Below, one piece after another: positions 10,914 to 44,311 of a DNA stretch of 64,000 nucleotides (position 1 is its first letter; each line of letters starts with the position of its first letter). Source of the stretch: a virus; the IMG/VR virus record IMGVR_UViG_3300015371_000016, positions 13,128 through 77,127 of that record; one strand, written 5' to 3'. The position numbers were made by a program, and so were the translations under genes. Below the pieces are notes generated by a model, which was given only the letters and a program-made list of their open reading frames with translations, was not told the origin of the DNA and searched no databases.

Positions 10914-11401
10914 TAGAATGCCCTCCGCCCGGTGGTCAGACCCCAGATGTTGCCGCCGTAGTTCTGTGCGTAATCGAGATACGCCCGACCATACGGCGTC
11001 TTCATCATCTGCAAATCAGTCAGCGTCATGCTCTTGGCTGCCGCGATGATCTCCAGCGTTTGCGACGTTCCCTGGTCCGACGATGATACCACAAGCCCAG
11101 CGGAGAAAGAGTGAAGTCCTAGTGACGACCGCAAGTCGCGGAAGAAGCACTGTCCTGCCGCGTCATTCGCTAGATTAAGCAGTCGGTCGGCGCCGTAATT
11201 ATAGACCGCCATGGTATATACCGAGCGTCCACAATCAGCCCAGATCAGCGCGTCGTTGACGGTGGCTCTCGCCATGTCGAACGTCGCTTGCACCCAGAGC
11301 GAATCGTCCGGCAGATACTCTGGGCCTATACCCACGCCTTCGCGCAGGAAGGCAAGATAGCCTTCGATCGTCGGCCCGTTGGTTATCTGCGTGAAGCTCA
11401 T
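10913..11401 (-). CDS. Head-tail adaptor (DUF4054-like)
   Basis: YTMAVYN, AGLVVSSSDQGTS, LQMMKTPYGRAYL motifs. Confidence 0.7.
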   Translation of the reverse strand: MSFTQITNGPTIEGYLAFLREGVGIGPEYLPDDSLWVQATFDMARATVNDALIWADCGRSVYTMAVYNYGADRLLNLANDAAGQCFFRDLRSSLGLHSFSAGLVVSSSDQGTSQTLEIIAAAKSMTLTDLQMMKTPYGRAYLDYAQNYGGNIWGLTTGRRAF

Positions 11402-13014: not shown

Positions 13015-13908
13015 TTAGATCAGAATGACAGCGGTGCTGCCGGTGTTGTCCCAGCGGGCAACGTTGTTCACCGCGTCGTAGACGATCACCTTCGAATTGC
13101 CGATGTTCAGCCCGAGAATCTTGCAGGCCAAAGCACCGCCGCCGTAGTTCAGCAAGATGGTGCCGGCGATCGTGCCCCAGGTGCCCTGGTTGGTCGGCAG
13201 GTTGAAAGTAAACACCGTCGAGGAAACCACACTGGCGATCCTCTGCGCGGTATTCAGCAAGCCAACCGGAGCAGTGCCGGAGTTGGTTGCCCCGGAAATC
13301 ACCACAGTGTCGCCGGCCGTCAGTGTCCAGCCGGAAATCGCACCTGAGAGCGTCGCAGTAGCCACGCCGCTCGCTACCGTGATGCCGGTGATGCTCGCGG
13401 TGCCGGCGGATGCCTGATACGGCTGAAGCACCTGAGCAGTCGTGTCCCAGGAGACCTGTGCGTTCTCGACGCCGCCCTCTAGCGAGGCTAGGGCAGGGTC
13501 GGCTTTGACCACGACACGCGCACCGCTGCCGAGCCTATGGAAGTGCACCGACATCAGATTGCCCGCAGTCGGCGCAATATCGCCGCCCGGCGCGACCATC
13601 ATGTTGTGCGCTTGATTGTAGACGCTGAAGCCCTGAATGAGCGCGGTCGTGGTCGCACGTCCCACGATCGGCCCAAGATTGTCCTGCGGCAAGGCGGTCT
13701 GTATCGGCGGATATCCAAGATTGAGGTACAGACCTACGCCGCCCCACATCGGCAGCGTCTCGGCAGCCGCGAGCACACCACCAGACAACGAGAAGCGCGT
13801 CGCAGGATCGTCGAGCGCCACACCTTGAATGTAGCCCTCGCTCTGAACAGAGAAGGTCCCTGCGGCGGTGGTGACCGCCATAGGGTTGAACGAGATGTTA
13901 GCGGCCAT
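13015..13908 (-). CDS. Capsid decoration/cement protein with inserted beta domain
   Basis: GYIQGVALDDPA.R..L.GG, ETLPMWGGV, HRLGSGARV motifs; immediately upstream of MCP. Confidence 0.7.
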   Translation of the reverse strand: MAANISFNPMAVTTAAGTFSVQSEGYIQGVALDDPATRFSLSGGVLAAAETLPMWGGVGLYLNLGYPPIQTALPQDNLGPIVGRATTTALIQGFSVYNQAHNMMVAPGGDIAPTAGNLMSVHFHRLGSGARVVVKADPALASLEGGVENAQVSWDTTAQVLQPYQASAGTASITGITVASGVATATLSGAISGWTLTAGDTVVISGATNSGTAPVGLLNTAQRIASVVSSTVFTFNLPTNQGTWGTIAGTILLNYGGGALACKILGLNIGNSKVIVYDAVNNVARWDNTGSTAVILI

Positions 13909-13921
13909 TTACGGCGCTCCC

Positions 13922-15471: not shown

Positions 15472-16818
15472 TCAGGCCAAGCGGTCGAGCATGTCGCTCA
15501 ATGCGACGTAGATTGAGGAAAGGCGATCGATCTGATCCACCCGCACGTCAGGCAACAACTCGGCATTCGCCATGATAGGTTCTCCCTTAGCGATGCCCGT
15601 CGGCTCGCCTGATTTATCCCACACACCCAAACTACAGATAGCGAGATGATCGAGCAGCGACGGCTTGCCCTCGATGAGCAGCGTCTTTCCGCCCTCAAGC
15701 TTCCGACTTTCGTTTACCTCAGGATCACGGAACATCACGTCGGGACTGGTCGATAGCGGATAGTCCAGCATAAGCTGCGCCGCGCCTTGGTCATAGATAC
15801 GCGCCACGGCCCACACTTCATCCTCGACAATATAGGGCAGCATCAGCGCGCCGATAATGCGATTCTCGAATTCTTGCTGGTTCAGCACGTCGTCAGGCGG
15901 ATGCTGCCAGATAACAGGCAATCCGTTGCAGCGGGCTAAGAAGTCTGGATTGAGGTACAGACCAGGATCGCGCCAGACGTGTTCATTCAGCTCGGGCCGA
16001 TAGCTCGCGCCTGTTCCTGTGACACGAAGCGCGAAGAGCCATAGGTTCTCATACTGCTGAGGCGACGACAGGCGGCCCTCGGCGATGGCGCGCGCGATGT
16101 CCAGCTCGTCCATCCGGACCCGCTCTAGGACCAACCTGACGCCCGGGTGCATAGGTTCCGGCGGCTGGTCCATCGGCGCCCATTCGAAGTCCTCTAGCTC
16201 GTCGCTGAGCGTCGGTTCGAATGGTTCCGCGACCCGCGCCTGGAACGTGCTGTAATCGGTCCCAGTCAGGCGATCCCGCATCAGCATCGACATCTTGCCG
16301 TGCGTTACTGCGCCAATTTCCTCGCCTACTTCTCGGAGGGCGGCGGTCTCGGCACTCTCTCCGGCCTCGATGATGCCTCCTGGGAACTCCCAGGTGCCAC
16401 GCTCTCTGTGCTTGACGAATAGCGCTTGATCTCCTCCGTCACTCTTGCAGAAGAACATGACGCCGGCCGCGCGACTCTGAGGATCGCCTGTGACAGGCGC
16501 CAGCGTCGCCACTTGCTCATCGGCCCGACCCTCCCTTTCGAAGAGCTTGCACCAATCCTCTGCTTTAATAACTCCTTCGACTAATGCGCAGCCGTCCGGC
16601 TCGATGAAGTGCTTGCAGATACCACAATGGCTCTGCGGCATGCCCTCACCGTAGTCCACAGCCTCTTTGGTCTGCTTCTCCGCATCATGCCGCTCAGCGG
16701 CGAATTCAGATGCCTCGCGCTCGTGCTCTACCTGTGAGATCGACGGCGGGACGTCGCTGGGAACGAAGACCCACGTGAAGCCCTGATTGACGCCTCCAGT
16801 TGGGACTTGGACATACAT
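15472..16818 (-). CDS. Prohead protease (DUF2213-like) fused to HiPIP-like Cys domain and NUDIX domain
   Basis: CGICKHF..CALVEG.I....WC; Nudix box GGIIEAGESAETAALREVGEEIG; ARCNGLPVIWQHP, LSTSP, LDHLAIC..GVWDK. Confidence 0.8.
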   Translation of the reverse strand: MYVQVPTGGVNQGFTWVFVPSDVPPSISQVEHEREASEFAAERHDAEKQTKEAVDYGEGMPQSHCGICKHFIEPDGCALVEGVIKAEDWCKLFEREGRADEQVATLAPVTGDPQSRAAGVMFFCKSDGGDQALFVKHRERGTWEFPGGIIEAGESAETAALREVGEEIGAVTHGKMSMLMRDRLTGTDYSTFQARVAEPFEPTLSDELEDFEWAPMDQPPEPMHPGVRLVLERVRMDELDIARAIAEGRLSSPQQYENLWLFALRVTGTGASYRPELNEHVWRDPGLYLNPDFLARCNGLPVIWQHPPDDVLNQQEFENRIIGALMLPYIVEDEVWAVARIYDQGAAQLMLDYPLSTSPDVMFRDPEVNESRKLEGGKTLLIEGKPSLLDHLAICSLGVWDKSGEPTGIAKGEPIMANAELLPDVRVDQIDRLSSIYVALSDMLDRLA

Positions 16819-16850
16819 GCTGTATTGTTCCTGTCCGGGAGGGTCAAGGC

Positions 16851-17150
16851 ATGTCACTGTCAAACATAGCCCGCGAGCCACGCCGCGAACTGACTGAAAG
16901 CGGTGTCGGTATCGCCCTAGCCGTCTTCATTCTAGCGACGTGGTTCGGCCTCGCTTGGTGGCTAGCGTCGTTCTCTTCCGTCGCTGGCGCGTTTCCAGTT
17001 TCGTTGGTTCTGATCTTACTAGGTGCGCTAATCCTATTTCTCTTTCTTGTCTTGACGCACGGTATCGGCGAGAAAGTCTGCGACGCGCTAGAGCGGCGCG
17101 GCTATCATCTGCGGCCTAAGCGCGCGCCGGTCCAGGTGACCTACCTGTGA
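16851..17150 (+). CDS. Two-TM membrane protein, antisense to late operon
   Basis: GGAGG RBS before ATG at 16851; two hydrophobic helices. Confidence 0.55.
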   Translation: MSLSNIAREPRRELTESGVGIALAVFILATWFGLAWWLASFSSVAGAFPVSLVLILLGALILFLFLVLTHGIGEKVCDALERRGYHLRPKRAPVQVTYL

Positions 17151-18746: not shown

Positions 18747-19616
18747 TTAGGCTCTTTCTGCTTGCGCCGCAGCATGCACGACATCCCTAGACGATGGCCC
18801 ATACATATACGGCAGAGGCCCTAGCATAATGTGTCCGGTCTGCGTCGCGTAGCGCACCGCCTGGATGTCGGGATGCGCAGCGAGCCATTCATTGATCGCG
18901 CTGTTGACCGTGCAATAGGCGATTACGTCGTCCACCAGGATGTATTTCGCTCGGCCGAAGCAGAGCGCGATGTCCTTCAGCGCGCCTTCGTGGCTGTGAT
19001 TGCCGTCAATGTGCGCGAGATCGTACGTCCGTGACAAATGCGTCAAAGTGCCGCTATCGCACCGTGCAAGCCTCAGCTCGTGCTCCGGATACTCCTCGTG
19101 CAGCATCCCGTTCGCGTAGGTGATGTCGCCGATATCGATGCCGTGGTAGATCGTGCCGGCAGCACATCCTCGCAGCATCGCCCAGGCTGAGTAGCCGGCA
19201 CGGACGCCGATTTCAAAGATGCTCTTCGGTCGCAATGCAGAGCATAGCTCGGTGTAGAGGCTGTAACTCGGCGGGAAAAGTTCGGTGCGCTGATACTCGT
19301 CGAGAAAGAAGTCGCCTTGAGCGAAAATGCGTTGCGGTAGCGTGCCGTTGCCTTCCCACTCCACCCACGGCACCGCATTGAGCGCGTCCTGCGGCCCGAT
19401 CGTGCGGATGAATACTATCTGCCGTTCGTCGCTGTCCCAGATTTCCAGGTCCATGATCGGATCGCCGTCCGTGATCAGCTCACGAACCTCGAATCCAACA
19501 TTGGACTCTTTGTGCGGAATACGATCGGACGGGCAAAGATAGACCGTGCAATCCTTGCCATTGCCGAGGCGCTGTCCTTGTCGTGCGATCTCGGCGAGGA
19601 TTTCAGCGTCGGTCAC
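18747..19616 (-). CDS. Class I SAM-dependent methyltransferase (Methyltransf_24-like)
   Basis: IFEIGVRAGYS, YHGID, DLAHIDGNHSHEG, ILVDD; GTG start overlaps upstream TGA. Confidence 0.8.
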   Translation of the reverse strand: MTDAEILAEIARQGQRLGNGKDCTVYLCPSDRIPHKESNVGFEVRELITDGDPIMDLEIWDSDERQIVFIRTIGPQDALNAVPWVEWEGNGTLPQRIFAQGDFFLDEYQRTELFPPSYSLYTELCSALRPKSIFEIGVRAGYSAWAMLRGCAAGTIYHGIDIGDITYANGMLHEEYPEHELRLARCDSGTLTHLSRTYDLAHIDGNHSHEGALKDIALCFGRAKYILVDDVIAYCTVNSAINEWLAAHPDIQAVRYATQTGHIMLGPLPYMYGPSSRDVVHAAAQAERA

Positions 19617-21382
19617 GCAGGCAGTTTCTCCCGTGCGGTATCGAGCGCCTGCCTTCCACGTGCTGTCAACATGTCGTCGGGCAGATCGCGTAGGTGGTAG
19701 ATGTAAACGTAATAGCAGCGGCAGTTGTGCGTTACGACTCCCTGGGCTACATACCAATTATTGATAGTTTGGAGATTGTAGACGTGCCCAGACCAAGGCC
19801 GGTTATTGATGTGGACCACATTGCTGCGCTTCGTAGCGAAGGGAAGGCTGTCTATGAAATTGCTGACGCCATTCACGTAAAGCCGACGACCCTCTGGGAG
19901 TGGCACAGGAATAGATGGATCGATCTCGGGCCAAAGTTGCCCCCTAGCCCGCGTATTTGTCTCGACCAACGCGCTATCCGCGCCGCCCATGACAGCGGTG
20001 AAAGTGTGCTCTCGATAGCCAATAGGTTTGGCGTATCGCGTTTGACGATCAAACGTCATATTCAGAAGGCCGGCGGACAACCTCGTACCCAGACTGAGGC
20101 AAATATCCTCATCGCTAGAAATAAGACGCCCGACCAACATAGTGCTGACGCCAAGGCTGCTCATCAAGCTAGACGAGGCAAAAAGGCTTCGCGCACCGAA
20201 TTGCTGCGTAGAGCAAGAAGTCAGTCCAAGATAATCGGGTACGGAGAGGCCGAACTTGTTACCGCTCTTACTGCTAAGAACCTGCGCCCCGACGTACAAC
20301 GGCCTGTAGGTCCATACAATATCGATATCGCTATCGGTACCATCGCCGTGGAATTGCTGGCGCTGCCCACGCCGTGTCTCAGAGAACCCAAATTTCACGA
20401 GCGAGCTATATATTTGCTCAATGCTGGGTATTGCATCGTTATCGTCAGATTCCGTCCCGGCGACCTCTCCGGTAGCCTCGATGACGTGATCGCCATTATT
20501 CAAAGACTGAATAGGACGCCACCCGCACGGCGTAAGAATTGGATGATTTGGTGTCGCGCGGAGCGTTTTACCCGTGTCCGTAATCAGCTCGGTCAATTGA
20601 CCGCTGTACCAGCGCCGATACGCTACTTCCACACCATCAGCGAATGGAAGCCTGGTATCTCCCGGTAAGCAGAATATTTCTTCGCCCGGCTGAGTGATCT
20701 TGTCCGAGAAGCCCGCGTCTCCGGCCCGCATGAAGCCGCGTGTGTGCGCCCAGCTATTCCGGATCGCATACACCTGCTGGTCGCGCTCCTTGTGGTCCTC
20801 GCGATAATCGTAGCCGGACTGGCGCCAGTGTGAGCGCCAGCGTGCGGCAATCGCTCCCGCGTCCTCTGCTAGGATCGCCGAGACCGAAGCATTCAGCTTG
20901 TGACCCTGATCGATGATCACCCGTCGCTCGACGAACGGCAGCGAGGTCAGACCCTTGCGTATCTCCCGCTTCTGCTCTCTGCGGTCGAGCTGGTCGGTGC
21001 CGCCAATCGGGACACTGGTGGCCCAGCCCTGAAAGCGCCTCAGCGTGTCGTTGATCGCCTGCTCACGGTTCAGTTTGATCAGATCGGCTGACGCCTGGAT
21101 GCGTCGGTTTAGTTCCGCCCGCAGCTTCGGCGCTATCCGCTGTACCGTAAAGCGATCTACACCTGGATGGCGGCGCAGCACCGTTCCTTCATCGATCAAT
21201 CGCGTGTAGGTCGAGCCTAGCACCTTGCGCAGCTCTTCGGCCAATGAACGCTCTGACACCATGTCAGTAATGGCCGCCTCGCGGATCAGATCGATCCAAT
21301 ACTGCAAACGCTCTTCGGACTCATAGCCGTGCTCAGCGATATCGTTCAGCGCGTCAGTGACAACCTGGAAGAACGTGGCCAT
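19613..21382 (-). CDS. Head morphogenesis protein (Mu gpF / SPP1 gp7-like) containing an intein
   Basis: IDQGHKL, W.SHWRQ.GYDYREDHKERD, PGEEIF[intein]CRC motifs. Confidence 0.85.
   Translation of the reverse strand: MATFFQVVTDALNDIAEHGYESEERLQYWIDLIREAAITDMVSERSLAEELRKVLGSTYTRLIDEGTVLRRHPGVDRFTVQRIAPKLRAELNRRIQASADLIKLNREQAINDTLRRFQGWATSVPIGGTDQLDRREQKREIRKGLTSLPFVERRVIIDQGHKLNASVSAILAEDAGAIAARWRSHWRQSGYDYREDHKERDQQVYAIRNSWAHTRGFMRAGDAGFSDKITQPGEEIFCLPGDTRLPFADGVEVAYRRWYSGQLTELITDTGKTLRATPNHPILTPCGWRPIQSLNNGDHVIEATGEVAGTESDDNDAIPSIEQIYSSLVKFGFSETRRGQRQQFHGDGTDSDIDIVWTYRPLYVGAQVLSSKSGNKFGLSVPDYLGLTSCSTQQFGARSLFASSSLMSSLGVSTMLVGRLISSDEDICLSLGTRLSAGLLNMTFDRQTRYAKPIGYREHTFTAVMGGADSALVETNTRARGQLWPEIDPSIPVPLPEGRRLYVNGVSNFIDSLPFATKRSNVVHINNRPWSGHVYNLQTINNWYVAQGVVTHNCRCYYVYIYHLRDLPDDMLTARGRQALDTAREKLPA
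19724..20671 (-). mobile_element. Intein, 316 aa, inserted in PGEEIF^CRC
   Basis: Block A CLPGDT, block B LRATPNHPILT..GW, block F/G VYNLQT..WYVAQGVVTHN followed by Cys+1. Confidence 0.9.
19784..20668 (+). CDS. HTH + DUF559/Vsr-like endonuclease nested antisense within the intein
   Basis: GGAG RBS at 19771 before GTG 19784; two HTH-like segments (GKAVYEIADAIHVKPTTL; GESVLSIANRFGVSRLTI); E.EL..L...Q.PVGPYNIDIA...AVE...R..YLLNAGY.IV.V. Confidence 0.75.
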   Translation: MPRPRPVIDVDHIAALRSEGKAVYEIADAIHVKPTTLWEWHRNRWIDLGPKLPPSPRICLDQRAIRAAHDSGESVLSIANRFGVSRLTIKRHIQKAGGQPRTQTEANILIARNKTPDQHSADAKAAHQARRGKKASRTELLRRARSQSKIIGYGEAELVTALTAKNLRPDVQRPVGPYNIDIAIGTIAVELLALPTPCLREPKFHERAIYLLNAGYCIVIVRFRPGDLSGSLDDVIAIIQRLNRTPPARRKNWMIWCRAERFTRVRNQLGQLTAVPAPIRYFHTISEWKPGISR

Positions 21383-28953: not shown

Positions 28954-29380
28954 TTTATTTACGTTCTTTGACAGATGCATCCGAACAGCGCAGCGCTTCG
29001 ATCGATCGATCGCGGCCCGTGTGCGGGAAACGTCTCGATGACGAATCCGCATAGCAACACGTCTCAATGACGACGCTAATACACGATACCGTTGCGCAAT
29101 CTATGCTGTTCGATTCTGTCCGCTCTTTCGCTGTCGGTGTATACGCTTCTGTTTACCACATCACTGTGAGGGTCTGCCGTTTCGGGGCCGCCCGGATGGG
29201 CCACATGATGTCCGAACAGAGGGTATATACGATCAGGGCGCATCGCGCGCTATGCAGATCAGCACGATACACAATTGAATCAGCAGCCCTACTCTACCCC
29301 AGCGCATAAGCACGGGATGGGTAGGACTTGGTGTGTTCCTCCTCTGGAAAGCGCGTGTAGCCCATTAGGGCGGGATTGCG

Positions 29381-29457
29381 CGCTTGTAATGCAGCAGGAC
29401 CGGTCCCAAGCCCGGCGCCGCAGGGTTTCCCCCCCAAGCGGAATGCAGAGGGAAACG
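29381..29457 (+). ncRNA. Twister ribozyme 1
   Basis: UAA-UGCA-GC..CCGGUCCCAAGCCCGG..(P5 insert)..AAUGCA-GAGGG; P1 weak. Confidence 0.75.
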
Positions 29458-29531
29458 AACCAAACTTGCGGCGGGCGCTCCGGCGTCCGTCGCTCTTTTT
29501 CCTGAAGAGACCCACAGAGGAGCACCGCTTT

Positions 29532-29798
29532 ATGAAGGGAATAATTCCGTATGCCCACGACAATATCCGCGGGAGTCGCGACCAGCCATGCGGGTTCGTC
29601 TATCTAGCGGAAAACGGTCACGGCATCGGACGCATCGGCTACGCTTACACGTCGTCTCTAGAGATTTTCAACTGCAAGGAAACTCCCAACGGAGTCAATA
29701 TCGACGTGCTCCATCGTGTCCGTAGATATATCAAGCAGCAGTTTCCGCATTTGCCGAGAGAGCGTGACTTTATGACGCAGTTACGGGATCAACCCTGA
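29532..29798 (+). CDS. Hypothetical early protein
   Basis: ACAGAGGAG leader then ATG. Confidence 0.6.
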   Translation: MKGIIPYAHDNIRGSRDQPCGFVYLAENGHGIGRIGYAYTSSLEIFNCKETPNGVNIDVLHRVRRYIKQQFPHLPRERDFMTQLRDQP

Positions 29799-29828
29799 CG
29801 ACACCAGCGCGCTGTGACAGCGGCGCGC

Positions 29829-29878
29829 GCGGTCTGCGGATACTCTCCGCACTGAAGAGGCCACGAGGCCGAAACCGC
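29829..29878 (+). ncRNA. Hammerhead ribozyme, type III
   Basis: GCGGUC^ stem I UGCGGA/UCCGCA, CUGAAGA, stem II GGCC/GGCC, GAAA-CCGC; predicted cleavage after 29834. Confidence 0.85.
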
Positions 29879-29902
29879 ACAGTGCATACAGAGGAACACC
29901 AA

Positions 29903-30166
29903 ATGTCGAAGATCATGGACCTACCGCAGGCAGTCAAGCGCGGATATCTACTGGCATGCCGGCCTCAAGGAGTCACACGAGCGCAGCTTACCAGTGAACT
30001 CGACAGCCAAATCGGCTGGAAGCGATATCTTGAGCGTATGGCAAAGTCAGACGCGCGCAGGCTTCTCAAGCCAAAGAAAAGCGACGACGGCTCCGTTCTA
30101 TACCGTGTTGTTGGTCACAAAGCCGCAGCAAGCAGGGTCGGAGTAATGCGAAAGGTGGCTCGATAA
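29903..30166 (+). CDS. Small wHTH-like (DUF3489-like) protein
   Basis: RPQGVTRAQL..IGWKRYL..VLYRV. Confidence 0.55.
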   Translation: MSKIMDLPQAVKRGYLLACRPQGVTRAQLTSELDSQIGWKRYLERMAKSDARRLLKPKKSDDGSVLYRVVGHKAAASRVGVMRKVAR

Positions 30167-30196
30167 TCTTGGAATACAAAAAGGGAAACGGGCACT

Positions 30197-30712
30197 ATGT
30201 CCTCGTCGCACTTTAGAAGCATGAACCAGCTTCGGTCAATGAATTGGGATAGCAAAGAGGCCGCAATCAAGGAACTTAAGCGCAATGGCTTTGCTCCTCA
30301 CGGAGAAGACTACACCATTGCCGAAGTTTCGGACGGTCATTACCAGATCGTTGATCGTGCTAATTCGTCAGACGGCCACCAACAAGCAGCACGTAAAGAG
30401 CCGACAAAGAAAGCGGCCCCTTCTTCAAAGAAGGAAGTCGCGAAGAAGGAAGTCGCGAAGAAGGAAGCTCCGAAGAAGCAAGCGGAGCCTTCTTCTAAGA
30501 AGGGACCAGCTCCTCGCCAAATGTCCGCGTGGACCAAGCAAGCGCTGGAGATGGCAAAGAGCCCAAACGGAGCTAAGCGTGCTAAGCTTAACGAGCTTCG
30601 TGCCAATATCGGCTGGAAATCCTATCTAGCTCGCATTGGCAAAAAAGATGGTCTCGTGATGGTCGTCACTAAAGACGACGAAGGATTAGTCTACGCTCTA
30701 GTAAAGCGGTGA
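30197..30712 (+). CDS. Lys/Ala-rich linker protein with DUF3489-like C-terminal domain
   Basis: KKEVA repeats; SPNGAKRAKL..IGWKSYL..LVYAL. Confidence 0.6.
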   Translation: MSSSHFRSMNQLRSMNWDSKEAAIKELKRNGFAPHGEDYTIAEVSDGHYQIVDRANSSDGHQQAARKEPTKKAAPSSKKEVAKKEVAKKEAPKKQAEPSSKKGPAPRQMSAWTKQALEMAKSPNGAKRAKLNELRANIGWKSYLARIGKKDGLVMVVTKDDEGLVYALVKR

Positions 30713-30716
30713 TTTT

Positions 30717-30790
30717 TGTCGAAACACACGAGCGCCGAAGCGTTCGTGTGTCGCTGGGAGATGCCCTACCCAGCCTGAAGAGACAGGGCA
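30717..30790 (+). ncRNA. Hammerhead ribozyme, type II
   Basis: UGUC-GAAA, stem III CACACGA/UCGUGUG, UC^, stem I GCUGGG/CCCAGC, CUGAAGA-GACA; loop UGCCC can pair with 3' GGGCA; predicted cleavage after 30752. Confidence 0.88.
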
Positions 30791-30807
30791 CTACAGAGGA
30801 ACACCAC

Positions 30808-31101
30808 ATGACAAAGACAAACCCCAATAGACACCGAGCGGCCTTGTCCTATATCGAGGCGGTTAACGACCAGTTGCTCGATCTAGTGGCGCCGATCGAA
30901 TGCTTGAGTAGCTTCGAAGCCGTGTCACCAGACGAGCTGGAGGCGCTGAAGAAGTGCACCAGCGATCTTCTATCGGTCGTGACCATCCTTCGCTCTGTCC
31001 AGAGCTATCACGAGCGCAAGCAACGCGCCTCCTCGATAGTCGTCACCACTTCGTCGCAGGATATAGCGCGGGAGCGGCGAACGCGAGCCGGAGGAAGATG
31101 A
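30808..31101 (+). CDS. Hypothetical early protein
   Basis: ACAGAGGAAC leader then ATG. Confidence 0.55.
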   Translation: MTKTNPNRHRAALSYIEAVNDQLLDLVAPIECLSSFEAVSPDELEALKKCTSDLLSVVTILRSVQSYHERKQRASSIVVTTSSQDIARERRTRAGGR

Positions 31102-31638
31102 TCCCGTATTTGCTTGTATTCTGGTTCCTCTTGCCTGTGTCACAGGCAGGAGACCCGCCTGTAAGCGAAACAATGATCATCGAGATGTCGTCTAAGGAGC
31201 AGTGCGAACGTGCACAACGAGAACTGAACAAGCGTGAAGACTGTGTGGCGGTATGCCACAAGGTCCGCTCGTGAGATGGTTCACTCTGTGCAGCGTAATG
31301 GCGTGGACGATCAGCCTGACCTTCCAGCCCATTAAGCTAATCGCTGCACAGCTCGCGGCGCTGTCTGTTATGTTTATTGTTGGAACGAGACCGATCATGG
31401 GACCGGCGCACGAATTCCGCCGCGCCCTCAGAGAGGGAGTTAATGATGTCTCACGTATGCTCCTCAGAGCACGAACCGCGGTGGCTGATCGATGCTCGTG
31501 GAATAGAGTGCTGTCTGGTGTGCGATCTCTGCGAAGCGGAGAAGCGAAGGCAATACCGCCCGGAGATATTCACTGATCCTGACTATGATCACTATGAAGA
31601 ACTCTAGCGATTCAGGAAGCGGGGCTTCGGCCCCGCTG

Positions 31639-31700
31639 GCTTAATGCAGGAGTGCCGGTCGCAACCCCGGCCACCGCATCGTGCGGGATGCAGAGCGAGC
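31639..31700 (+). ncRNA. Twister ribozyme 2
   Basis: GCU-UAA-UGCA-GG..CCGGUCGCAACCCCGG..AUGCA-GAGCG-AGC; compensatory changes in both pseudoknots. Confidence 0.85.
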
Positions 31701-31714
31701 ACAGAGGAGCACCA

Positions 31715-32194
31715 ATGGCTAGAGCAATCGTGATCGATGCCGAGAAGCGCGAGCTGCGCTATATCGAGATACCAGACGGGTCCAATAGCCTTCCTATACT
31801 GCGCGACATTGTCGATGGATGGATCAGCGTCGCATATACGTGGAACGACAAGGATGTACTTTATGTGGATGACGAAGGACTAATGAAAGGCCGAGAGCAT
31901 TACTTCCGACTTTTCGATCGCACTGATGGCCAACCACTCGCGGGCAATGGCGTTATCCTCGGTGAGGAAGTGATCGACGAAGAAGGCGACTTCGTGAATT
32001 ACCTCGACACGCGACTGACCATCGAATTCCTTTCTAGTCGCGTTCAATTCTTGACTAAGCAACAAGCAATCGCGTGGTTCAAAGGCAACGCTTCAGAGCC
32101 GATGATCACGGTCACCACGATTGATGCTGACAAGATCAAAACCGAAGTCATCGCCCGATATGCGATTTTGATTCCCGAAGATGACGATGATTGA
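31715..32194 (+). CDS. DUF3846-like protein
   Basis: L.DIVDGWI, LYVDDEGL, PLAGNGVILG motifs. Confidence 0.7.
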   Translation: MARAIVIDAEKRELRYIEIPDGSNSLPILRDIVDGWISVAYTWNDKDVLYVDDEGLMKGREHYFRLFDRTDGQPLAGNGVILGEEVIDEEGDFVNYLDTRLTIEFLSSRVQFLTKQQAIAWFKGNASEPMITVTTIDADKIKTEVIARYAILIPEDDDD

Positions 32195-32221
32195 GAATCT
32201 ACCGCGCCGCTTCGGTGGTGC

Positions 32222-32276
32222 GGACTTAATGCAGCCAACGGCGGTTCCAAGCCCGCGTGTAATGCAGAGGAAGCCC
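32222..32276 (+). ncRNA. Twister ribozyme 3
   Basis: UAA-UGCA-GC..GCGGUUCCAAGCCCGC..AAUGCA-GAGGA; T1 covaries UCC/GGA. Confidence 0.85.
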
Positions 32277-32295
32277 CTTACAGAGGAAACACCAC

Positions 32296-32532
32296 ATGAA
32301 GGAAGACTTACTGCAAGCTTCCGCTCGTAGAAAAGCGGCGGCCATGGAGCTGTTCAACAGTCCACGTGGTCGATATCTACTAGGACAGGCCCTAGCGCTT
32401 GCCGTCAAAAGCATGCGCTCCGAACGCTATCCGGAGACCTCGAACATCGCGGACATGGAGCTGCTCGGCAACGAGATATTCGCGTTCGGCTATCGCCTAG
32501 AACTAGTGAAAGGGACACGCGCAACATGCTGA
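32296..32532 (+). CDS. Hypothetical early protein
   Basis: ACAGAGGA leader then ATG. Confidence 0.6.
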   Translation: MKEDLLQASARRKAAAMELFNSPRGRYLLGQALALAVKSMRSERYPETSNIADMELLGNEIFAFGYRLELVKGTRATC

Positions 32533-32948
32533 TCATGTACCACTCGATGGATATCACTGATCTCGCACTAGCTGCTGCCCTTACCGGCGGCCCTAATCCT
32601 AATAGGGCCTATCTCGCCTACGATCTATTCCTCAAAGGCTACTACGAAGCGGTCGCCGGCACTAACGCTGAGCCGAACTTTATCGGTCAACTGAAGCTGC
32701 TTAAGATCACACAAAACAAGCGAGGCAAGTCCTGGTCTCGCTATCGTCACAAGAGCCTTCTGGTCAACGATCCGGTGCGCGCTGTGCTCGGCATACGAGA
32801 ATCACAAACAGGCGACGTGATCGAGGAACAGAACAGTCGGGGCGTCATCAAGATGCGCTGGGTAGTCGATCTGATCAAAGCACCCGAAGACGATCCTGTT
32901 TCGTGGATGGTCGGCTTCACGCCGATGCCCGGAGACTATTCCCACTGA
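32526..32948 (+). CDS. Hypothetical protein
   Basis: 140 aa, coupled to upstream gene. Confidence 0.55.
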   Translation: MLIMYHSMDITDLALAAALTGGPNPNRAYLAYDLFLKGYYEAVAGTNAEPNFIGQLKLLKITQNKRGKSWSRYRHKSLLVNDPVRAVLGIRESQTGDVIEEQNSRGVIKMRWVVDLIKAPEDDPVSWMVGFTPMPGDYSH

Positions 32949-32975
32949 TTGAAGTCGGCGGGATTCCTTCTCGCC

Positions 32976-33033
32976 GATTTAATGCGGCCACCCATAGGGT
33001 GTCGGTCCCAAGCCCGGACAAACGCAGAGGGTC
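32976..33033 (+). ncRNA. Twister ribozyme 4
   Basis: UAA-UGCG-GC, P3 CACCC/GGGUG, CGGUCCCAAGCCCG, AAACGCA-GAGGG; P2 covaries UGCG/CGCA. Confidence 0.85.
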
Positions 33034-33057
33034 CTTCCATACAGAGGAAACATCACT

Positions 33058-33393
33058 ATGCCGAGACGACCTAGAAAGAAGGAGGCGGCTAACGGCGCTT
33101 CTAAAAACGGGGAAACCAGATGGCAAGGCCATGATCCGGTTTTCTTCCATCGACAGCAAGTCAAAGTCGGCGTGCGCTTTGTGAATTTCGGCCGAATGGA
33201 TCACGGCTCGATTTGGGAAGTAATTCAGATTTACACCCACGTCGTGCTGGCGAGCGGCAACATACGTCGCTCGCAGGTCGAACAAGTGGAGCGACTGTCG
33301 GATGACGTTCTGATACGCAGGCAAGGCCGCAATGATCCGCGTCGCTGCAAATTTTCGACGCTCTCTTACTCAGCTATCTGGAGGATATCGTGA
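33058..33393 (+). CDS. Hypothetical early protein
   Basis: ACAGAGGA leader then ATG. Confidence 0.6.
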   Translation: MPRRPRKKEAANGASKNGETRWQGHDPVFFHRQQVKVGVRFVNFGRMDHGSIWEVIQIYTHVVLASGNIRRSQVEQVERLSDDVLIRRQGRNDPRRCKFSTLSYSAIWRIS

Positions 33394-33845
33394 GCCGTTC
33401 ACGCGAGACTTTCGACGTATGGTGCGCCGTGCGAGTCGAAGCTGATGCCGGCACTAGACTTGAGATCGTCAGGAACGAAAAAGGAGATTGGGTTTGCCTC
33501 GGCGCAGCCCCGGTCAATAAGACCCTCGCTCTTCCGGCTCCAAATGCCAAGTCTCAAGGCGCCGAGTTGACCAAGAAACTCCTAGGTGAGCGCAGCAAAC
33601 GCTACAAACCCGGGAATCATCCACTAGATGAAGCAATCTTGGCTGCTATATCAAAGCCGATCGATGCCCAGCATATTCGTGAAGCTTTGGGAATAGCCCC
33701 AGAAAATCCGCTAGCTAAATGTTTGACTCGCAGAGTCGCCAAACTAAAGAGCGAAAAGCTTATAAGGGTTTTCCCTCCTGACAGCCATGTTATGTGGCCT
33801 CGATACGTTCGAGCGTCCAACACCAACCTAAAAGTGGTAGCCTGA
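33390..33845 (+). CDS. Hypothetical protein with C-terminal wHTH-like region
   Basis: GTGA overlap with upstream gene; AILAAIS.PIDAQHIREALG pattern. Confidence 0.5.
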   Translation: MSRSRETFDVWCAVRVEADAGTRLEIVRNEKGDWVCLGAAPVNKTLALPAPNAKSQGAELTKKLLGERSKRYKPGNHPLDEAILAAISKPIDAQHIREALGIAPENPLAKCLTRRVAKLKSEKLIRVFPPDSHVMWPRYVRASNTNLKVVA

Positions 33846-33914
33846 CTAGACGGAAGCGGCTCGCTGTGGCGCGCCGTTTTCGCCCCGTCAGGGGAAACAG
33901 AGGAGCACCAATCT

Positions 33915-34229
33915 ATGAAAACAGCGATTTTGGCTGCTGTCGCTATAGCTATGACCTCACTGCCGGCGCTGGCAAGGTATGATGGCCACCTAAGAACTAA
34001 CTGCCGAGACCCTGCTGTTCTGGAAACGGTTCGTCTCGGTATCGCTAGGCGAGTGAGTCCTGTGTTCCTGCAAGCGTCCTGGCAGAATGTATTTACATTC
34101 CCGAACCCAGGCGGCTGGGACGGCCTAGAATGCTACGGCACACTGAATGCCGGCTCCACCTTTAGAGTCGTTTACTTCGGCAACGTGGAGATCGGCGGCC
34201 AAGAATACATTTCCTGGAGGGCTCGCTGA
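33915..34229 (+). CDS. Secreted/periplasmic protein with signal peptide
   Basis: MKTAILAAVAIAMTSLPALA; two Cys. Confidence 0.65.
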   Translation: MKTAILAAVAIAMTSLPALARYDGHLRTNCRDPAVLETVRLGIARRVSPVFLQASWQNVFTFPNPGGWDGLECYGTLNAGSTFRVVYFGNVEIGGQEYISWRAR

Positions 34230-34318
34230 TCTGACCTGGACGCAGGCTGCTCACTCGCGGGTGCGCAGTCTGCGCCTCGGCCAGAATAGTCTGACTGAGG
34301 AATACAGAGGAACACCAA

Positions 34319-35251
34319 ATGACTGCACGAAACTGGATCGGCGGCAGGAATGGCAACCAAGCCTCTTCTGCTGCCAACTGGTCTCCTACTGGCGCACCGC
34401 TATCGGGCGACACGCTGACGATCGATCACGGCACGATGCAAGTCACTGGCAGCGCGCTCGGAAACGACGATCTGCACGTGACGGGCAATGCGACGGTCAG
34501 TTTTCACCAGAGCTACGGCGATCATCTGATCATCGGCGTGCCTGGACCGACCAAGCTGAACGCGACGGTCAACCTATCGAATTCTGCCGTCGCGATCAAT
34601 CAAGGCTGGGATAATCTGAAGATCAATGCCGCCGGCACCAACTGGCTCGCTCTGTCTAGCTATCCCGGCTACAGAGCGACCAACGGATCGGTGACGATCA
34701 AGAATTCAGGAACCCTAGTCGGGAGCGTCGGCGGCCTAGGCACGAGCGTGCGGATCGATGGCGGGACGTTCTACAATCAGGACTCCCATGTCGGTCTGGA
34801 CGGCGGATCGTTCGTGATCAACTCCAAAGTCGCGGGAGACGGCTCCTGGACTCTGGGCACGTATCACGCACCGTATGCCAAGCTCGAATTCATGCAATCG
34901 GTCAGCTCAGAGCAGACGATAAACCTGGAAAGCGGTGTGGGATACGGGCTCCTACAGATCGACCAGCCATCTACCTTCCGGGCCAAAATCGGGTGGGCGA
35001 GTGAGCAAGCGATCGTCGATCTGAATAAGCTCGCCGCCGATAGCTACAAATATGATGCCTCGGCCGGTGCGCTCGACTTCTTCAGCGGCAACCGGATGAT
35101 CTATCAGCTCCACGTCGAGAAAACGTCGCCCTACGTCGGAACTTACGCGGTCGCCAAAGGAACCTCGACCGGCGGTGCCGGCGTGGAACTCTATTCCAAG
35201 GACTTCGCGTGGAAGCTTCCGCACGGCGCTGATCTGCCAGTGCACACCTAA
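34319..35251 (+). CDS. Beta-rich, autotransporter-passenger-like protein
   Basis: WIGG..ASSAANWSPTGAP.SGD.L.I N-terminus; Gly/Ser/Asn/Thr-rich. Confidence 0.6.
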   Translation: MTARNWIGGRNGNQASSAANWSPTGAPLSGDTLTIDHGTMQVTGSALGNDDLHVTGNATVSFHQSYGDHLIIGVPGPTKLNATVNLSNSAVAINQGWDNLKINAAGTNWLALSSYPGYRATNGSVTIKNSGTLVGSVGGLGTSVRIDGGTFYNQDSHVGLDGGSFVINSKVAGDGSWTLGTYHAPYAKLEFMQSVSSEQTINLESGVGYGLLQIDQPSTFRAKIGWASEQAIVDLNKLAADSYKYDASAGALDFFSGNRMIYQLHVEKTSPYVGTYAVAKGTSTGGAGVELYSKDFAWKLPHGADLPVHT

Positions 35252-35283
35252 CACTACCCGCACCGTGTCGGGGTCGGTGCGGG

Positions 35284-35341
35284 GCTTAATGCAGCAGAGC
35301 TGGTCCCAAGCCCAGCGCCCTACAGGGAATGCAGAGGGAGC
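35284..35341 (+). ncRNA. Twister ribozyme 5
   Basis: GCU-UAA-UGCA-GC..GCUGGUCCCAAGCCCAGC, P5 CCCU/AGGG, AAUGCA-GAGGG-AGC. Confidence 0.88.
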
Positions 35342-35360
35342 AACAGAGGAACATCATCAC

Positions 35361-35555
35361 ATGACTAGCTATGAGATCATGCGGGCAGCGCTCGCGCTGC
35401 TCATGCACGTCACCAATCCGAACAATCCACACTGTCTCGACGATCTGCATAAATGGCAGGACTTTCTGCGCAGCAAATACGCTGAGCAGTGTGAGATGGA
35501 TCGCAATTGCTCATTATGGCTGGAGCACGGCGATCTAATGTGCCGACCACTATAA
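35361..35555 (+). CDS. Hypothetical early protein
   Basis: ACAGAGGA leader then ATG. Confidence 0.5.
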   Translation: MTSYEIMRAALALLMHVTNPNNPHCLDDLHKWQDFLRSKYAEQCEMDRNCSLWLEHGDLMCRPL

Positions 35556-35805: not shown

Positions 35806-35964
35806 CTAAGGGAGCGCGCTTAGCGTGGCTCTCTTAGCCTGGAGTTCACCCAGGTAACCCCTGACCAGCGGGCCGACCTACCGGCCAACGACACATGGTT
35901 ACGCGGTCTCGGTTGTGGACACTGGTCGGGCCGAGACCAATTTCCTGCAAGCAGAGGACACACA

Positions 35965-36336
35965 ATGCCATTCGATTCAATGAAAAGCGACCTACAGATC
36001 GAGCGCGACGAGAAGGCTCTTGCGATGCTCAACTGGATTTATGCCAGCATGGCCGCGCACCGATACACGTGGTGCCAAGGCTCAATGGGCGTGGGCGGTA
36101 TACACTGCATTATGGGCTGGGCGAGAAGATACGACGGCGTATTTGGTGCCGAACTTTTGGCTGAGTATTTGGGACCGCTTTGTCCAAATATCGCAGACGA
36201 AGGACTCACTATTATTGTTCGTCAAAATTTGCTTGCCCATCGTGTAATAAAAATGAACGACGCCAGATCGACCACAAAAGACACGATGCTTTTATTGCTA
36301 TCTCAAGCAATCACGAACATCAGGCTGGGTAAATAA
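35965..36336 (+). CDS. Hypothetical protein (DUF6197-like)
   Basis: WCQG..HCIMG..ND..TTKD.ML.LL..AI motif. Confidence 0.55.
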   Translation: MPFDSMKSDLQIERDEKALAMLNWIYASMAAHRYTWCQGSMGVGGIHCIMGWARRYDGVFGAELLAEYLGPLCPNIADEGLTIIVRQNLLAHRVIKMNDARSTTKDTMLLLLSQAITNIRLGK

Positions 36337-36379: not shown

Positions 36380-36410
36380 AGGGCGGTACTTTCGGGTGCC
36401 GCCCTTTTTT
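36380..36410 (+). terminator. Intrinsic terminator ending the early cluster
   Basis: AGGGCGGTAC-TTTCGG-GTGCCGCCC followed by T6. Confidence 0.8.
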
Positions 36411-36784
36411 ATCCTGCTCGATTCGCAAGCGCCTTCACATTGGCGAAGCCAAGAGAGCTTACTGTCGCAATTAGGCTACAGTGCACTGTTACCGCACCAT
36501 TTCACGTGGCCGCTGTCAAGCGGTTTCACGGGTCCGAGAGACCGAATTTCACGGAAACGCGCGTGGCGCCGCACGTTTTGGATATAATCTGTGCACAGTA
36601 TCGCTGCACAAACGAACGGGACCGCCCAGTGACCAGCAAGCGGTCCCGCCCACCAACCTACAGAGGAACGCACCAATGCCACGCTCACGCCCAGCGATCT
36701 CGCGGTAAAGCTCTGGCAGTTCCGTGTTCAATGTAGCGTTTCGCGGGTTTCTTGTCACCACGCTTTCTAATGTAGACGTTCCCT

Positions 36785-37555
36785 CTATGCTGCCTTTGTT
36801 GGTATGTCGGCGCGACGTTCGTCGATCTCTGTCGAGAAGTGCTCCGCTAATAAATCAAGCGCGCCCATCAGCCGCTCGGTCTCCGTCCGCAGTAGACGTT
36901 GACGTTCCCGGCACCACTCCTCCAGCGTTCGGTTCCAGATGACTATGCACAATATAAGCCAGCGCGTCTCGGTGGAAAAGCGCTTCATGGCGCGTATGAA
37001 GTCCCGTCCCGCTCGCTCTGACCTCTGTGCAGCGCTGGTAGGACCCAACCGAGGAAGATGCACTGAGGCGCCAATGGGCAGGATGTTATCGCGTGAGCAG
37101 AGCCCGCCGGCCGCGATGTCAGACAACCAGCGCAGATAGTCTGCTGCCCGGATGTGCTCCTCGGTGACCGAGGACGACGGGTCCTTCGCCATGATCCGCA
37201 GCGGGTCGAAAGTGTGCCACCCGGTGATCTCCCTTACCCTTCGGGCGTTGGGCCGGAGGTCGTCTGGGTCTCGCCAGGAAGCGCGCATGGCCTTTCCGTG
37301 CGTCTGCTGGGCTCGTGGCGGGCCGGAGGGATCGGTGGCCATCATACGGCTGGCAGCGTGCACGACGGCGTCCTGAGCGATCCTAGACCGGTGCACGCGG
37401 GTCACTTCGAGGCGGAGGGTAGCTCCCGAGATGTCAGGCTTCGGGAGAGGCTCGGCTGAGTGGATCAGCCACATCATCCCGCCGTGTCGCTCCTCGACCG
37501 CGTCGCCTGGACTGGGCAATGGTCCCACCCATGGAACCCTGACCACGCGGCTCAT
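36785..37555 (-). CDS. Putative late-gene transcription regulator (Q-like position)
   Basis: Last gene of the replication operon; C-terminal sigma-region-4-like segment (L..ALDLLAEHF). Confidence 0.5.
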   Translation of the reverse strand: MSRVVRVPWVGPLPSPGDAVEERHGGMMWLIHSAEPLPKPDISGATLRLEVTRVHRSRIAQDAVVHAASRMMATDPSGPPRAQQTHGKAMRASWRDPDDLRPNARRVREITGWHTFDPLRIMAKDPSSSVTEEHIRAADYLRWLSDIAAGGLCSRDNILPIGASVHLPRLGPTSAAQRSERAGRDFIRAMKRFSTETRWLILCIVIWNRTLEEWCRERQRLLRTETERLMGALDLLAEHFSTEIDERRADIPTKAA

Positions 37556-43205: not shown

Positions 43206-43577
43206 ATGCGCTTTCGCGGTAATCAACAACGAGATGTCTGGCCTCCTAGGGCAGGGCATTTCCGTCTCCGTCTGTGCCGCCGCGGTTGGTCCGTGCCGGC
43301 TAAGATTCAGTATTCTCCCATAGAGGGATGGCGGGCAATCGTCGATGAAAGAGAGTTCCCGTGGCATGACGATCCCGCTTACGCCGAGAGCGTGCCGCGC
43401 GTCTGGCACTACGGTCTGATCGTCGATAAATCGGTTTACGATTGGTGCCTCGACGTAAAGCGCTGGGCAGAGAAGGAGATCGCCGAGAGGCGACTGGACT
43501 ACCATCCTACATTGTCGCCGGAGGAGCCGATTAAGCGCATGAGGCTACCACCCTTCCTACCACAGAGGAGCACATAA
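43206..43577 (+). CDS. Hypothetical protein
   Basis: PGHFRLRL..GW.VPA.I motif; coupled to next gene. Confidence 0.6.
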   Translation: MRFRGNQQRDVWPPRAGHFRLRLCRRGWSVPAKIQYSPIEGWRAIVDEREFPWHDDPAYAESVPRVWHYGLIVDKSVYDWCLDVKRWAEKEIAERRLDYHPTLSPEEPIKRMRLPPFLPQRST

Positions 43578-44311
43578 TGAGCGAAAATATTCCGAAGCCA
43601 CCTCGTCCGCTCACCCCTGAAGAAATCCGCGCATGGCTGGATTATCAGGCAGAAGAACTGGTGAAGCGCAGCGACGACCTCGTCGAGGCCCTGCGCGAGA
43701 TGGCGCGGGCGCATCCCATGATTGCAGATGGTGACGATGAAACAGCCGGCAGATTTATCGATAATCTCGGGATGGCTAAGGCACTGGTGAAATCAGCCGA
43801 AGCGCTGCATACCCGCGAGAAAGCTCCATACCTACAGGGCGGCAAAACCGTCGATGCCTGGAAGGCTAATTTCCTCGGTATTCTTGCACGCGCTATGGAC
43901 CCTGTCAGCAAGATCGTCTTCAACTACTCTGCCCGCAAGGACGCAATCGAGCGCAGGCAACGCGAAGAGGAAGCGCGTCGTTCCGAAGAGGCCGCCGCCC
44001 AGGCGGTCAAGAATGACGCATTCAGCGAGGAGGCGGATATTGCCTTAATGAATGCGGCGCGCGCCAAGCGGGATACCATGGCCAAGCCTGCGGAAAGATC
44101 GCAGACTAGAGGCGTTTACGGCACACTGGCATCAATCAGACAGACATGGACCTGGGAAGTCACCGACATCGAAAGCGTGCCGCGCAAGTATCTCACGATC
44201 GATTCTGCTAAGATACGCGAGGCCATGAAGACGCGCGACAAGCTCGGCAAACCAGTGGCCATGATACCGGGCATTTCCTGGGTAACGGAACGTAGTTTAG
44301 GAGTTCGCTAA
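43577..44311 (+). CDS. Coiled-coil recombination-associated protein (Gp157/Gam-like)
   Basis: EKAPYL.GGK.VD, W.WEVTD..VPRKYL..IPGI; upstream of recT. Confidence 0.6.
   Translation: MSENIPKPPRPLTPEEIRAWLDYQAEELVKRSDDLVEALREMARAHPMIADGDDETAGRFIDNLGMAKALVKSAEALHTREKAPYLQGGKTVDAWKANFLGILARAMDPVSKIVFNYSARKDAIERRQREEEARRSEEAAAQAVKNDAFSEEADIALMNAARAKRDTMAKPAERSQTRGVYGTLASIRQTWTWEVTDIESVPRKYLTIDSAKIREAMKTRDKLGKPVAMIPGISWVTERSLGVR

Follow-up and report, generated by a model that had tools for sequence, protein, structure and literature searches.

Why would a virus place seven self-cleaving ribozymes between the small genes of one short gene block, and what would become of the message? The question is raised by IMG/VR virus record IMGVR_UViG_3300015371_000016 (77,127 base pairs (bp); CheckV completeness 93%), of which a window of 64,000 nucleotides (nt), bases 13128-77127, was analyzed; coordinates below are those of the window. 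An earlier note on this DNA had pointed to five twister and two hammerhead motifs and had proposed that they cut an early transcript into units. As shown below, the motifs are under selection for structure and recur in a fixed junction design. We consider it likely, taking the explanation as a whole, that the plus-strand block at 29.3-36.4 kb forms a single operon, with about 17 genes that are small and mostly ORFans, and that functional ribozymes process its RNA.

Seven ribozymes between the genes of one block

Twisters were searched for with a descriptor demanding N-AA, a 4-bp P2, a 3-bp P4, a 3-bp T1 and a 2-bp T2, with pairing compulsory throughout. Five cores were matched, all on the plus strand (29387-29452, 31642-31697, 32227-32271, 32980-33031 and 35287-35338), and 200 Markov-shuffled windows gave no match. 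Over the whole genome, the Rfam twister-P1 model (RF03160) found exactly five twisters, with E-values from 2e-12 to 2e-3 and scores of 20.8-52.3 bits. When reported by E-value, twister-P1 matches were 32976-33035 (52.3 bits), 32223-32275 (41.7 bits) and 35283-35342 (39.0 bits), and the Twister-P5 model matched 29345-29415 (37.3 bits against a gathering threshold of 37.6) and 31611-31670. A covariance model specific to the lineage, with its filters disabled, found no sixth twister in the window, the next match scoring only 12.9 bits, and the pistol, hatchet and twister-sister models had no match over the whole 77-kb genome.

A hammerhead descriptor covering three permutations gave exactly two matches in the window and none in 100 shuffles. 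The five twisters and two hammerheads, in order, are as follows.

29383-29456, plus strand: twister 1 (P5, weak P1), upstream of the first gene of the operon; predicted cut U29387^A29388; twister-P1 30 bits, Twister-P5 37.3 bits, lineage model 50.8 bits
29827-29880 (motif 29829-29878), plus strand: type III hammerhead; predicted cut after C29834 (GUC^U); stems of 6, 4 and 5 bp
30714-30790 (descriptor 30714-30788), plus strand: type II hammerhead; predicted cut after C30752 (GUC^G)
31638-31701, plus strand: twister 2 (T1 CGC/GCG, T2 GG/CC, P5); predicted cut U31642^A31643; descriptor, Rfam, covariation and lineage model
32223-32275, plus strand: twister 3 (T1 UCC/GGA, without P3 or P5); predicted cut U32227^A32228; Rfam, descriptor and lineage model
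32976-33035, plus strand: twister 4 (P2 UGCG/CGCA, P3, no P1 pairing); predicted cut U32980^A32981; Rfam 52.3 bits, E-value 1e-9
35283-35342, plus strand: twister 5 (P4 CUG/CAG, P5); predicted cut U35287^A35288; Rfam, descriptor and lineage model

The descriptors thus bear out the classes, positions, strand and intergenic placement given in the earlier note. They also reproduce exactly the compensatory changes that it had listed: across the window T1 is CCC/GGG, TCC/GGA or CGC/GCG, T2 is GC/GC or GG/CC, and P2 is TGCA/TGCA or TGCG/CGCA. The conserved twister core (N-A cleavage step, AA, GC after P2, G-U...AAGC loop, GA before T1) is present in all five, including the catalytic or invariant A of the cleavage site and G of the GA step; in twister 2 AAGC has become AACC, offset by a compensating GC to GG change. 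Twisters 1, 2 and 5 have P5, twister 4 has P3, and twister 3 lacks both. Because these optional stems differ, the five are not recent duplicates.

Both hammerheads have CUGANGA, GAAA and GUC. In the type III motif, with its core CUGANGA, GAAA and UH cleavage triplet, stems I and II are closed and stem III is open. The type II motif has the full core, a closed 6-bp stem I and a closed 12-bp stem III (30724-30751), and an open stem II. Its loop I carries GCCCU, complementary to an AGGGC directly 3′ of stem II (after GAC), and type II hammerheads typically have such a pseudoknot, in which loop I forms 4 bp or more with nucleotides directly 3′ of stem II (PMC3088659).

The Infernal search with Rfam models that the earlier note had suggested as a check agrees in part. 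Twister-P1 recovers the five twisters and RF00008 the type III hammerhead (42.5 bits against a gathering threshold of 48.5, E-value 8e-7), all at scores below gathering. RF02276 has no match at the 30714 motif at E ≤ 10, and its two weak matches elsewhere look like noise. This model probably misses the type II motif because of the long 12-bp stem III.

Covariation with three metagenomic relatives

No close relative was found in IMG/VR. A signature search of metagenome contigs yielded three soil-metagenome contigs, here L271, L272 and L273, that carry the same module. L271 has six twisters in 2.7 kb and is syntenic with the window, as the two share the divergent upstream gene. In L272, about 6 kb hold nine twisters plus a type II hammerhead whose pseudoknot is GCCC/GGGC. 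In L273, three ribozymes (twister, type II and type III) stand ahead of three consecutive genes. Three ribozyme types are interchangeable within one junction design and one lineage.

An alignment of 21 twisters from the window and the three contigs was scored on the twister fold including both pseudoknots, giving for each helix the fraction of paired cells and the number of pairs with changes on both sides.

P2: 100% of cells paired; both-side changes in 2 of 4 pairs
P4 (two pairs scored): 100% of cells paired; both-side changes in 2 of 2 pairs
T2: 100% of cells paired; both-side changes in 2 of 2 pairs
T1: 98.4% of cells paired; both-side changes in 3 of 3 pairs
P1: 48% of cells paired; both-side changes in 3 of 4 pairs

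Overall, both sides change in 12 of 15 pairs, and T1 alone takes eight different Watson-Crick triplet pairs. The covariation score was 0.374 against 0.125 for shuffled alignments, none of 500 reaching 0.374, and slid registers scored 0.10 or less; in the slid controls of T1 and T2 at most 39% of cells were paired. Mean column identity among the twisters is 53%. The covariation and the differing optional stems support the view of the earlier note that the structure is selected and not the result of recent duplication.

A twister variant was also seen at 12586-12650 of L272, in which CA replaces the conserved AA of loop L4 while the helices are all compensated (P2 UGUC/GACA, T1 UGG/CCA).

A fixed junction design

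The cut sites and their surroundings follow one layout. At six of six internal junctions the predicted cut lies 32-40 nt past the preceding stop codon, and the gap holds a hairpin whose stability falls in the top 1-5% when compared with random 50-nt windows from this sequence, which agrees with the strong hairpin that the earlier note had described ahead of the twisters. Two of the upstream hairpins are capped by C(UUCG)G tetraloops, and at the type II hammerhead stem III itself is the 3′ hairpin of the upstream piece. The separate hairpins are listed here with the RNAfold energy of the 50 nt upstream of the cut and its rank among 1000 random windows, followed by a further hairpin downstream of twister 1.

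29349-29385, plus strand: hairpin before twister 1, ending 1 nt short of the cut; -23.0 kcal/mol, lowest 1%
29805-29829, plus strand: hairpin before the type III hammerhead; -21.5 kcal/mol, lowest 2%
31618-31637, plus strand: 8-bp C(UUCG)G hairpin before twister 2; -19.0 kcal/mol, lowest 5%
32202-32223, plus strand: 9-bp UUCG-loop hairpin before twister 3; -18.5 kcal/mol, lowest 5%
32953-32979, plus strand: 11-bp hairpin ending at the cut of twister 4; -19.1 kcal/mol, lowest 5%
35257-35283, plus strand: 9-bp hairpin before twister 5; -20.6 kcal/mol, lowest 2.5%
29468-29503, plus strand: 11-bp GC hairpin resembling a terminator, with a U-rich tail, located between twister 1 and the leader of g1; top match of the terminator scan

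On the downstream side, a ACAGAGGA leader is found in 12 copies in the window against 1.4 expected, and nine of them are in the ribozyme block. Mapping of these leaders confirmed that six of the seven ribozymes end 0-10 nt before one, close to the distance of about 10 nt that had been noted earlier; the exception is twister 1, about 60 nt away. From predicted cut sites and mapped leaders, the leader begins 42-62 nt after the cut at the six internal junctions, and the start codon follows 13-17 nt past its first base. A CAGAGGA inside twister 3, 38 nt past the cut, is not the leader. The nine leaders and their genes (lengths in amino acids, aa) are as follows.

29514-29521, plus strand: leader of g1 (29532-29798, 88 aa)
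29888-29895, plus strand: leader of g2 (29903-30166, 87 aa)
30793-30800, plus strand: leader of g4 (30808-31101, 97 aa)
31701-31708, plus strand: leader of g7 (31715-32194, 159 aa, DUF3846)
32280-32287, plus strand: leader of g8 (32296-32532, 78 aa)
33041-33048, plus strand: leader of g10 (33058-33393, 111 aa)
33897-33904, plus strand: leader of g12 (33915-34229, 104 aa)
34304-34311, plus strand: leader of g13 (34319-35251, 310 aa)
35343-35350, plus strand: leader of g14 (35361-35555, 64 aa)

Cutting at the seven sites would yield seven predicted units of 447-2307 nt that carry one to four genes each, so not all are single-gene units.

After twister 1 (cut after 29387, no upstream gene): 447 nt, g1
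After the type III hammerhead (cut after 29834, 36 nt past the stop): 918 nt, g2 and g3
After the type II hammerhead (cut after 30752, 40 nt past the stop): 890 nt, g4-g6
After twister 2 (cut after 31642, 35 nt past the stop): 585 nt, g7
After twister 3 (cut after 32227, 33 nt past the stop): 753 nt, g8 and g9
After twister 4 (cut after 32980, 32 nt past the stop): 2307 nt, g10-g13
After twister 5 (cut after 35287, 36 nt past the stop): 1124 nt, g14-g16 up to the terminator

The last unit would end at the intrinsic terminator that closes the operon.

36380-36411, plus strand: intrinsic terminator, 11-bp stem then TTTTTT, also covered by terminator-like small-RNA matches in Rfam

A model of RNA processing in the operon

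Judged from the sequence, the ribozymes probably cut a long message into gene-sized pieces with protected ends. Each ribozyme would cut itself during transcription, 32-40 nt past the preceding stop codon. The upstream piece would be left with a very stable hairpin and a 2′,3′-cyclic phosphate at its 3′ end, and the downstream piece would start with a 5′-OH buried in the folded ribozyme body, followed by the ACAGAGGA Shine-Dalgarno leader and the start codon. The 3′ product of a twister keeps its pseudoknots and hides its 5′ end (PMC8782182). Seven units with structured ends would result, each with its translation start insulated from upstream RNA, and the net effect would be protein-free mRNA processing. 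Because twister 1 precedes the first gene, the triphosphate 5′ end would be removed from the first unit as well.

The processing model of the earlier note is therefore plausible insofar as the motifs are real and selected, are co-oriented with the genes and are placed so as to leave hairpin 3′ ends and 5′-OH starts; its suggestion of RNA circularization between consecutive ribozymes found no support, as described below. The processing model is also the hypothesis that Perreault et al. 2011 put forward. As for the purpose of the cuts, stabilization and insulation as opposed to decay, our confidence is lower than in processing itself, because the fate of 5′-OH ends depends on the host.

Leader-bearing junctions without a known ribozyme

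Three leader-bearing junctions of the block hold structured RNA with no Rfam match at E ≤ 10 and no known ribozyme.

33846-33896, plus strand: slot A, a long hairpin and a short CCCC-GUCA-GGGG hairpin; -28.8 kcal/mol, z-score -1.8
34230-34303, plus strand: slot B, two abutting hairpins; -38.8 kcal/mol, z-score -3.3, none of 200 shuffles as stable
35806-35950, plus strand: slot C, a post-stop hairpin, a GCCUGG/CCAGG hairpin and a four-helix region of about 85 nt with crossing pairs; -62.6 kcal/mol, z-score -2.8

Slot B was considered as a type II hammerhead and rejected, CUGAGGA being present and GAAA absent. Slot C directly precedes the GCAGAGGA leader of g16 (35965-36336), and its potential helices are GUAACC/GGUUAC, CCUGACCAG/CUGGUCGGG, GGCCG/CGGCC and GGUCUCGG/CCGAGACC. 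A ribozyme like that of hepatitis delta virus (HDV) was rejected for slot C by inspection, as 10 nt separate P3 from P1, no P1.1 is adjacent, J4/2 is only one or two bases long and P2 is crossed by the strongest helix. Nor did any HDV family of Rfam match slot C at E ≤ 10.

L272 contains three copies of another unclassified junction element (10800-10928, 13113-13186 and 13830-13914). It consists of a long hairpin, with the upstream stop codon in its outer stem, and then a hairpin of 4-5 bp whose conserved RCCAGG loop is complementary to CCUGG of the first hairpin. A search of viral and genome collections with this pattern returned 138 loci, of which three passed the stem filter and all three looked like chance.

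One copy of the L272 element stands upstream of the orthologue of g10 (54% identity), the place taken by twister 4 in the window, and this substitution is suggestive. Such an exchange of a twister for another element ahead of an orthologous gene is the kind of clue that led to pistol, hatchet and twister-sister. Slots A-C and the three RCCAGG elements of L272 might be RNAs that take the place of twisters and hammerheads, either by unrecognized self-cleavage or by defining ends in some other way, which we regard as an outside chance, and a few of these junction elements are worth assaying as new catalytic RNAs.

Distribution beyond the lineage

A search for the same kind of twister led to 63 other IMG/VR contigs, and in 33 of them the stretch retrieved holds two or three ribozymes on the same strand. 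A hairpin ends within 6 nt of the cut in 91 of the 93 twisters there, and a Shine-Dalgarno sequence with a start codon lies within 45 nt downstream in 82 of the 93, counts that are not independent since many of the contigs are near-duplicates. Searches with the twister 3′ end plus leader gave merely chance matches within genes of low-GC phages among viral contigs, and a longer signature of the same kind had no match in the genome collection.

The 80 terminase relatives searched, about 1 Mb in all, yielded just three type II hammerheads and not a single twister; the whole records of the five closest large terminase relatives had no twister and one doubtful hammerhead. Because terminase relatives are without twisters, the array is an accessory feature of one lineage and dispensable for the phage type.

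Genome context

The uncultured source of the window is a tailed phage, as judged from protein matches to a portal, a terminase-like protein, an intein-containing protein, a Nudix fusion, a Toprim primase-helicase and RecT. Terminase identity to the nearest named phages, which infect mixed hosts, is at most 50%, and a nucleotide search of named phages with the region found no match.

The ribozyme block is divergent from the minus-strand packaging and structural genes. Among its roughly 17 called genes, the DUF3846 match of g7 is the single family match, the remaining ones having none in Pfam or PHROGs. No homologues of g13 and g16 were found in viral contigs, nor of g13 in metagenome contigs. 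The size and type of the genes, their orientation and their position suggest that the block would be expressed early.

Several further observations were made. The gene g2 (29903-30166) and the C-terminal third of g3 (30197-30712) have in common a domain of about 60 aa (38% identity, E-value 1e-9, motif IGWK.YL.R); the two are paralogues within one predicted processed unit, and a relative of g3 is also present in L272. Past the operon terminator, the region 36412-36710 has a TATAAT-like box at about 36585-36590, a ACAGAGGA leader at 36660 and only a 10-codon open reading frame. A transcript from it would run antisense into the minus-strand gene 36785-37555, and it may be a regulatory RNA or encode a leader peptide. 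Another ACAGAGGA leader (43562-43569) heads the gene 43577-44311 at the start of a second plus-strand block, the RecT region, without an upstream ribozyme. The intein-splicing-domain match is in a 589-aa protein (19613-21382) and the Nudix domain in a 469-aa protein of the structural region (15472-16881).

Weighing the explanations

Several findings weigh against processing of the operon RNA by functional ribozymes. An Rfam scan of the window at the gathering threshold returned nothing, since all twister-P1 scores are below the threshold of 67.2 and the type III hammerhead is also sub-gathering. The P1 helix pairs in only 48% of cells, and in twister 4 not at all. The terminator-like hairpin after twister 1 has no place in the processing model; it is absent after the first twister of the syntenic contig L271, and in the window it might attenuate the operon as a whole. 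With three leader-bearing and several leaderless junctions that have no ribozyme, processing would not amount to one cut per gene. Twisters are absent from the phages closest in terminase (54-63% identity). The fate of a 5′-OH RNA depends on the host, and decay via RNase J1 is the case for glmS (cited in PMC6765202). The low twister scores follow mainly from the structure itself, as the twisters are largely P1-less and therefore fall below the Rfam threshold. In mini-twisters, P1 is reportedly dispensable for catalysis.

The sub-gathering scores, together with the failure of RF02276 at the type II motif, are also what would favor inactive relics or chance look-alikes, an explanation that is very hard to reconcile with the absence of descriptor matches in shuffles, the strong covariation, the fixed placement and the recurrence in relatives. 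A different idea, compatible with processing, is that the junction modules serve mainly as boundaries of exchangeable gene cassettes, the conserved repeats promoting recombination and cleavage being secondary. Gene content does shift across the window, L271 and L272 while junction design and leader persist, the g10 orthologues have different upstream elements (twister 4 and the unclassified element of L272), and the terminase relatives lack the array. For recombination, however, sequence identity suffices and would not keep compensatory changes in two pseudoknots, or catalytic nucleotides, through 21 copies, and at a mean column identity of 53% the twisters are too divergent as recombination substrates; as the main role, this is improbable.

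The ribozymes could instead lower or time expression, either by 5′-OH decay, for which glmS and RNase J1 offer a precedent (cited in the review PMC6765202), or by conditional cleavage, the upstream hairpin competing with P1, which is weak or absent and whose 5′ strand abuts or overlaps that hairpin. Since both new ends would be stably structured and the ribozyme is followed by an optimal leader, protection and efficient translation seem the better reading, and no attached part resembles a ligand-binding domain, so we think this somewhat more improbable still. Cleavage would also yield 5′-OH and 2′,3′-cyclic phosphate ends, which RtcB joins, and units between consecutive ribozymes might thus be circularized by a host ligase of the RtcB type. 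The first and last 25 nt of the units, however, pair no better than shuffled controls (fraction at least as good 0.25-0.94), and the twister fold should hide the 5′ end (PMC8782182). Circularization is accordingly very unlikely, and processing of the message into units remains the explanation that we prefer.

Relation to known systems and implications

Phages with such arrangements have precedents. Perreault et al. 2011 described multiple hammerheads that flank single genes or short gene blocks in prophages, and proposed that long phage transcripts are thereby processed to mRNAs of gene length; native transcripts of about 2 kb were cleaved in vitro, and the triple arrangement of A. tumefaciens in vivo (PMC3088659). 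The present array likewise has several predicted self-cleaving RNAs on its coding strand, interspersed with small genes of a phage, and the type II pseudoknot is common to both. In contrast, it is mostly of twisters and of mixed classes, has seven ribozymes in 6 kb rather than two or three per about 2 kb, and includes a fixed post-stop hairpin and a conserved leader. Twisters share gene neighborhoods with hammerheads, and reviews (including PMC6765202) regard their purpose as unsettled. The twisters here have the core, P2, P4, T1, T2 and optional P3 and P5 of the type-P1 class (RF03160; Roth et al. 2014, as cited in PMC6765202), but they differ in a largely unpaired P1 and in having a separate hairpin directly next to the cleavage site.

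Two further comparisons concern the proposed function. RNase III cuts the polycistronic early mRNA of phage T7 between genes, leaving hairpin 3′ ends. Intergenic cuts and hairpin 3′ ends are likewise proposed here, whereas the RNA itself would do the cutting, with 5′-OH and cyclic-phosphate ends and no host enzyme. RiboJ-type insulators, like twister expression platforms (the latter PMC6765202), also have a self-cleaving RNA 5′ of the ribosome-binding site that strips off upstream RNA and standardizes the 5′ end; those are engineered, whereas the arrangement here is natural and repeated.

The operon is a dense and well-supported example and not a new phenomenon, as the layout has been proposed for phages since 2011, and current beliefs about such arrays are unchanged by it. 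The window and its three metagenomic relatives share a compact design of stop codon, tetraloop hairpin, cut about 35 nt later, folded 5′ end and fixed leader, and gene content varies among the window, L271 and L272 while this design is retained. Given a design so rule-like, processing and insulation would be readily testable in a heterologous host. New with this case are its clean junction grammar, the pairing of twisters that lack P1 with a separate hairpin next to them, the exchange of three ribozyme types within a single lineage, and a few unclassified junction elements.

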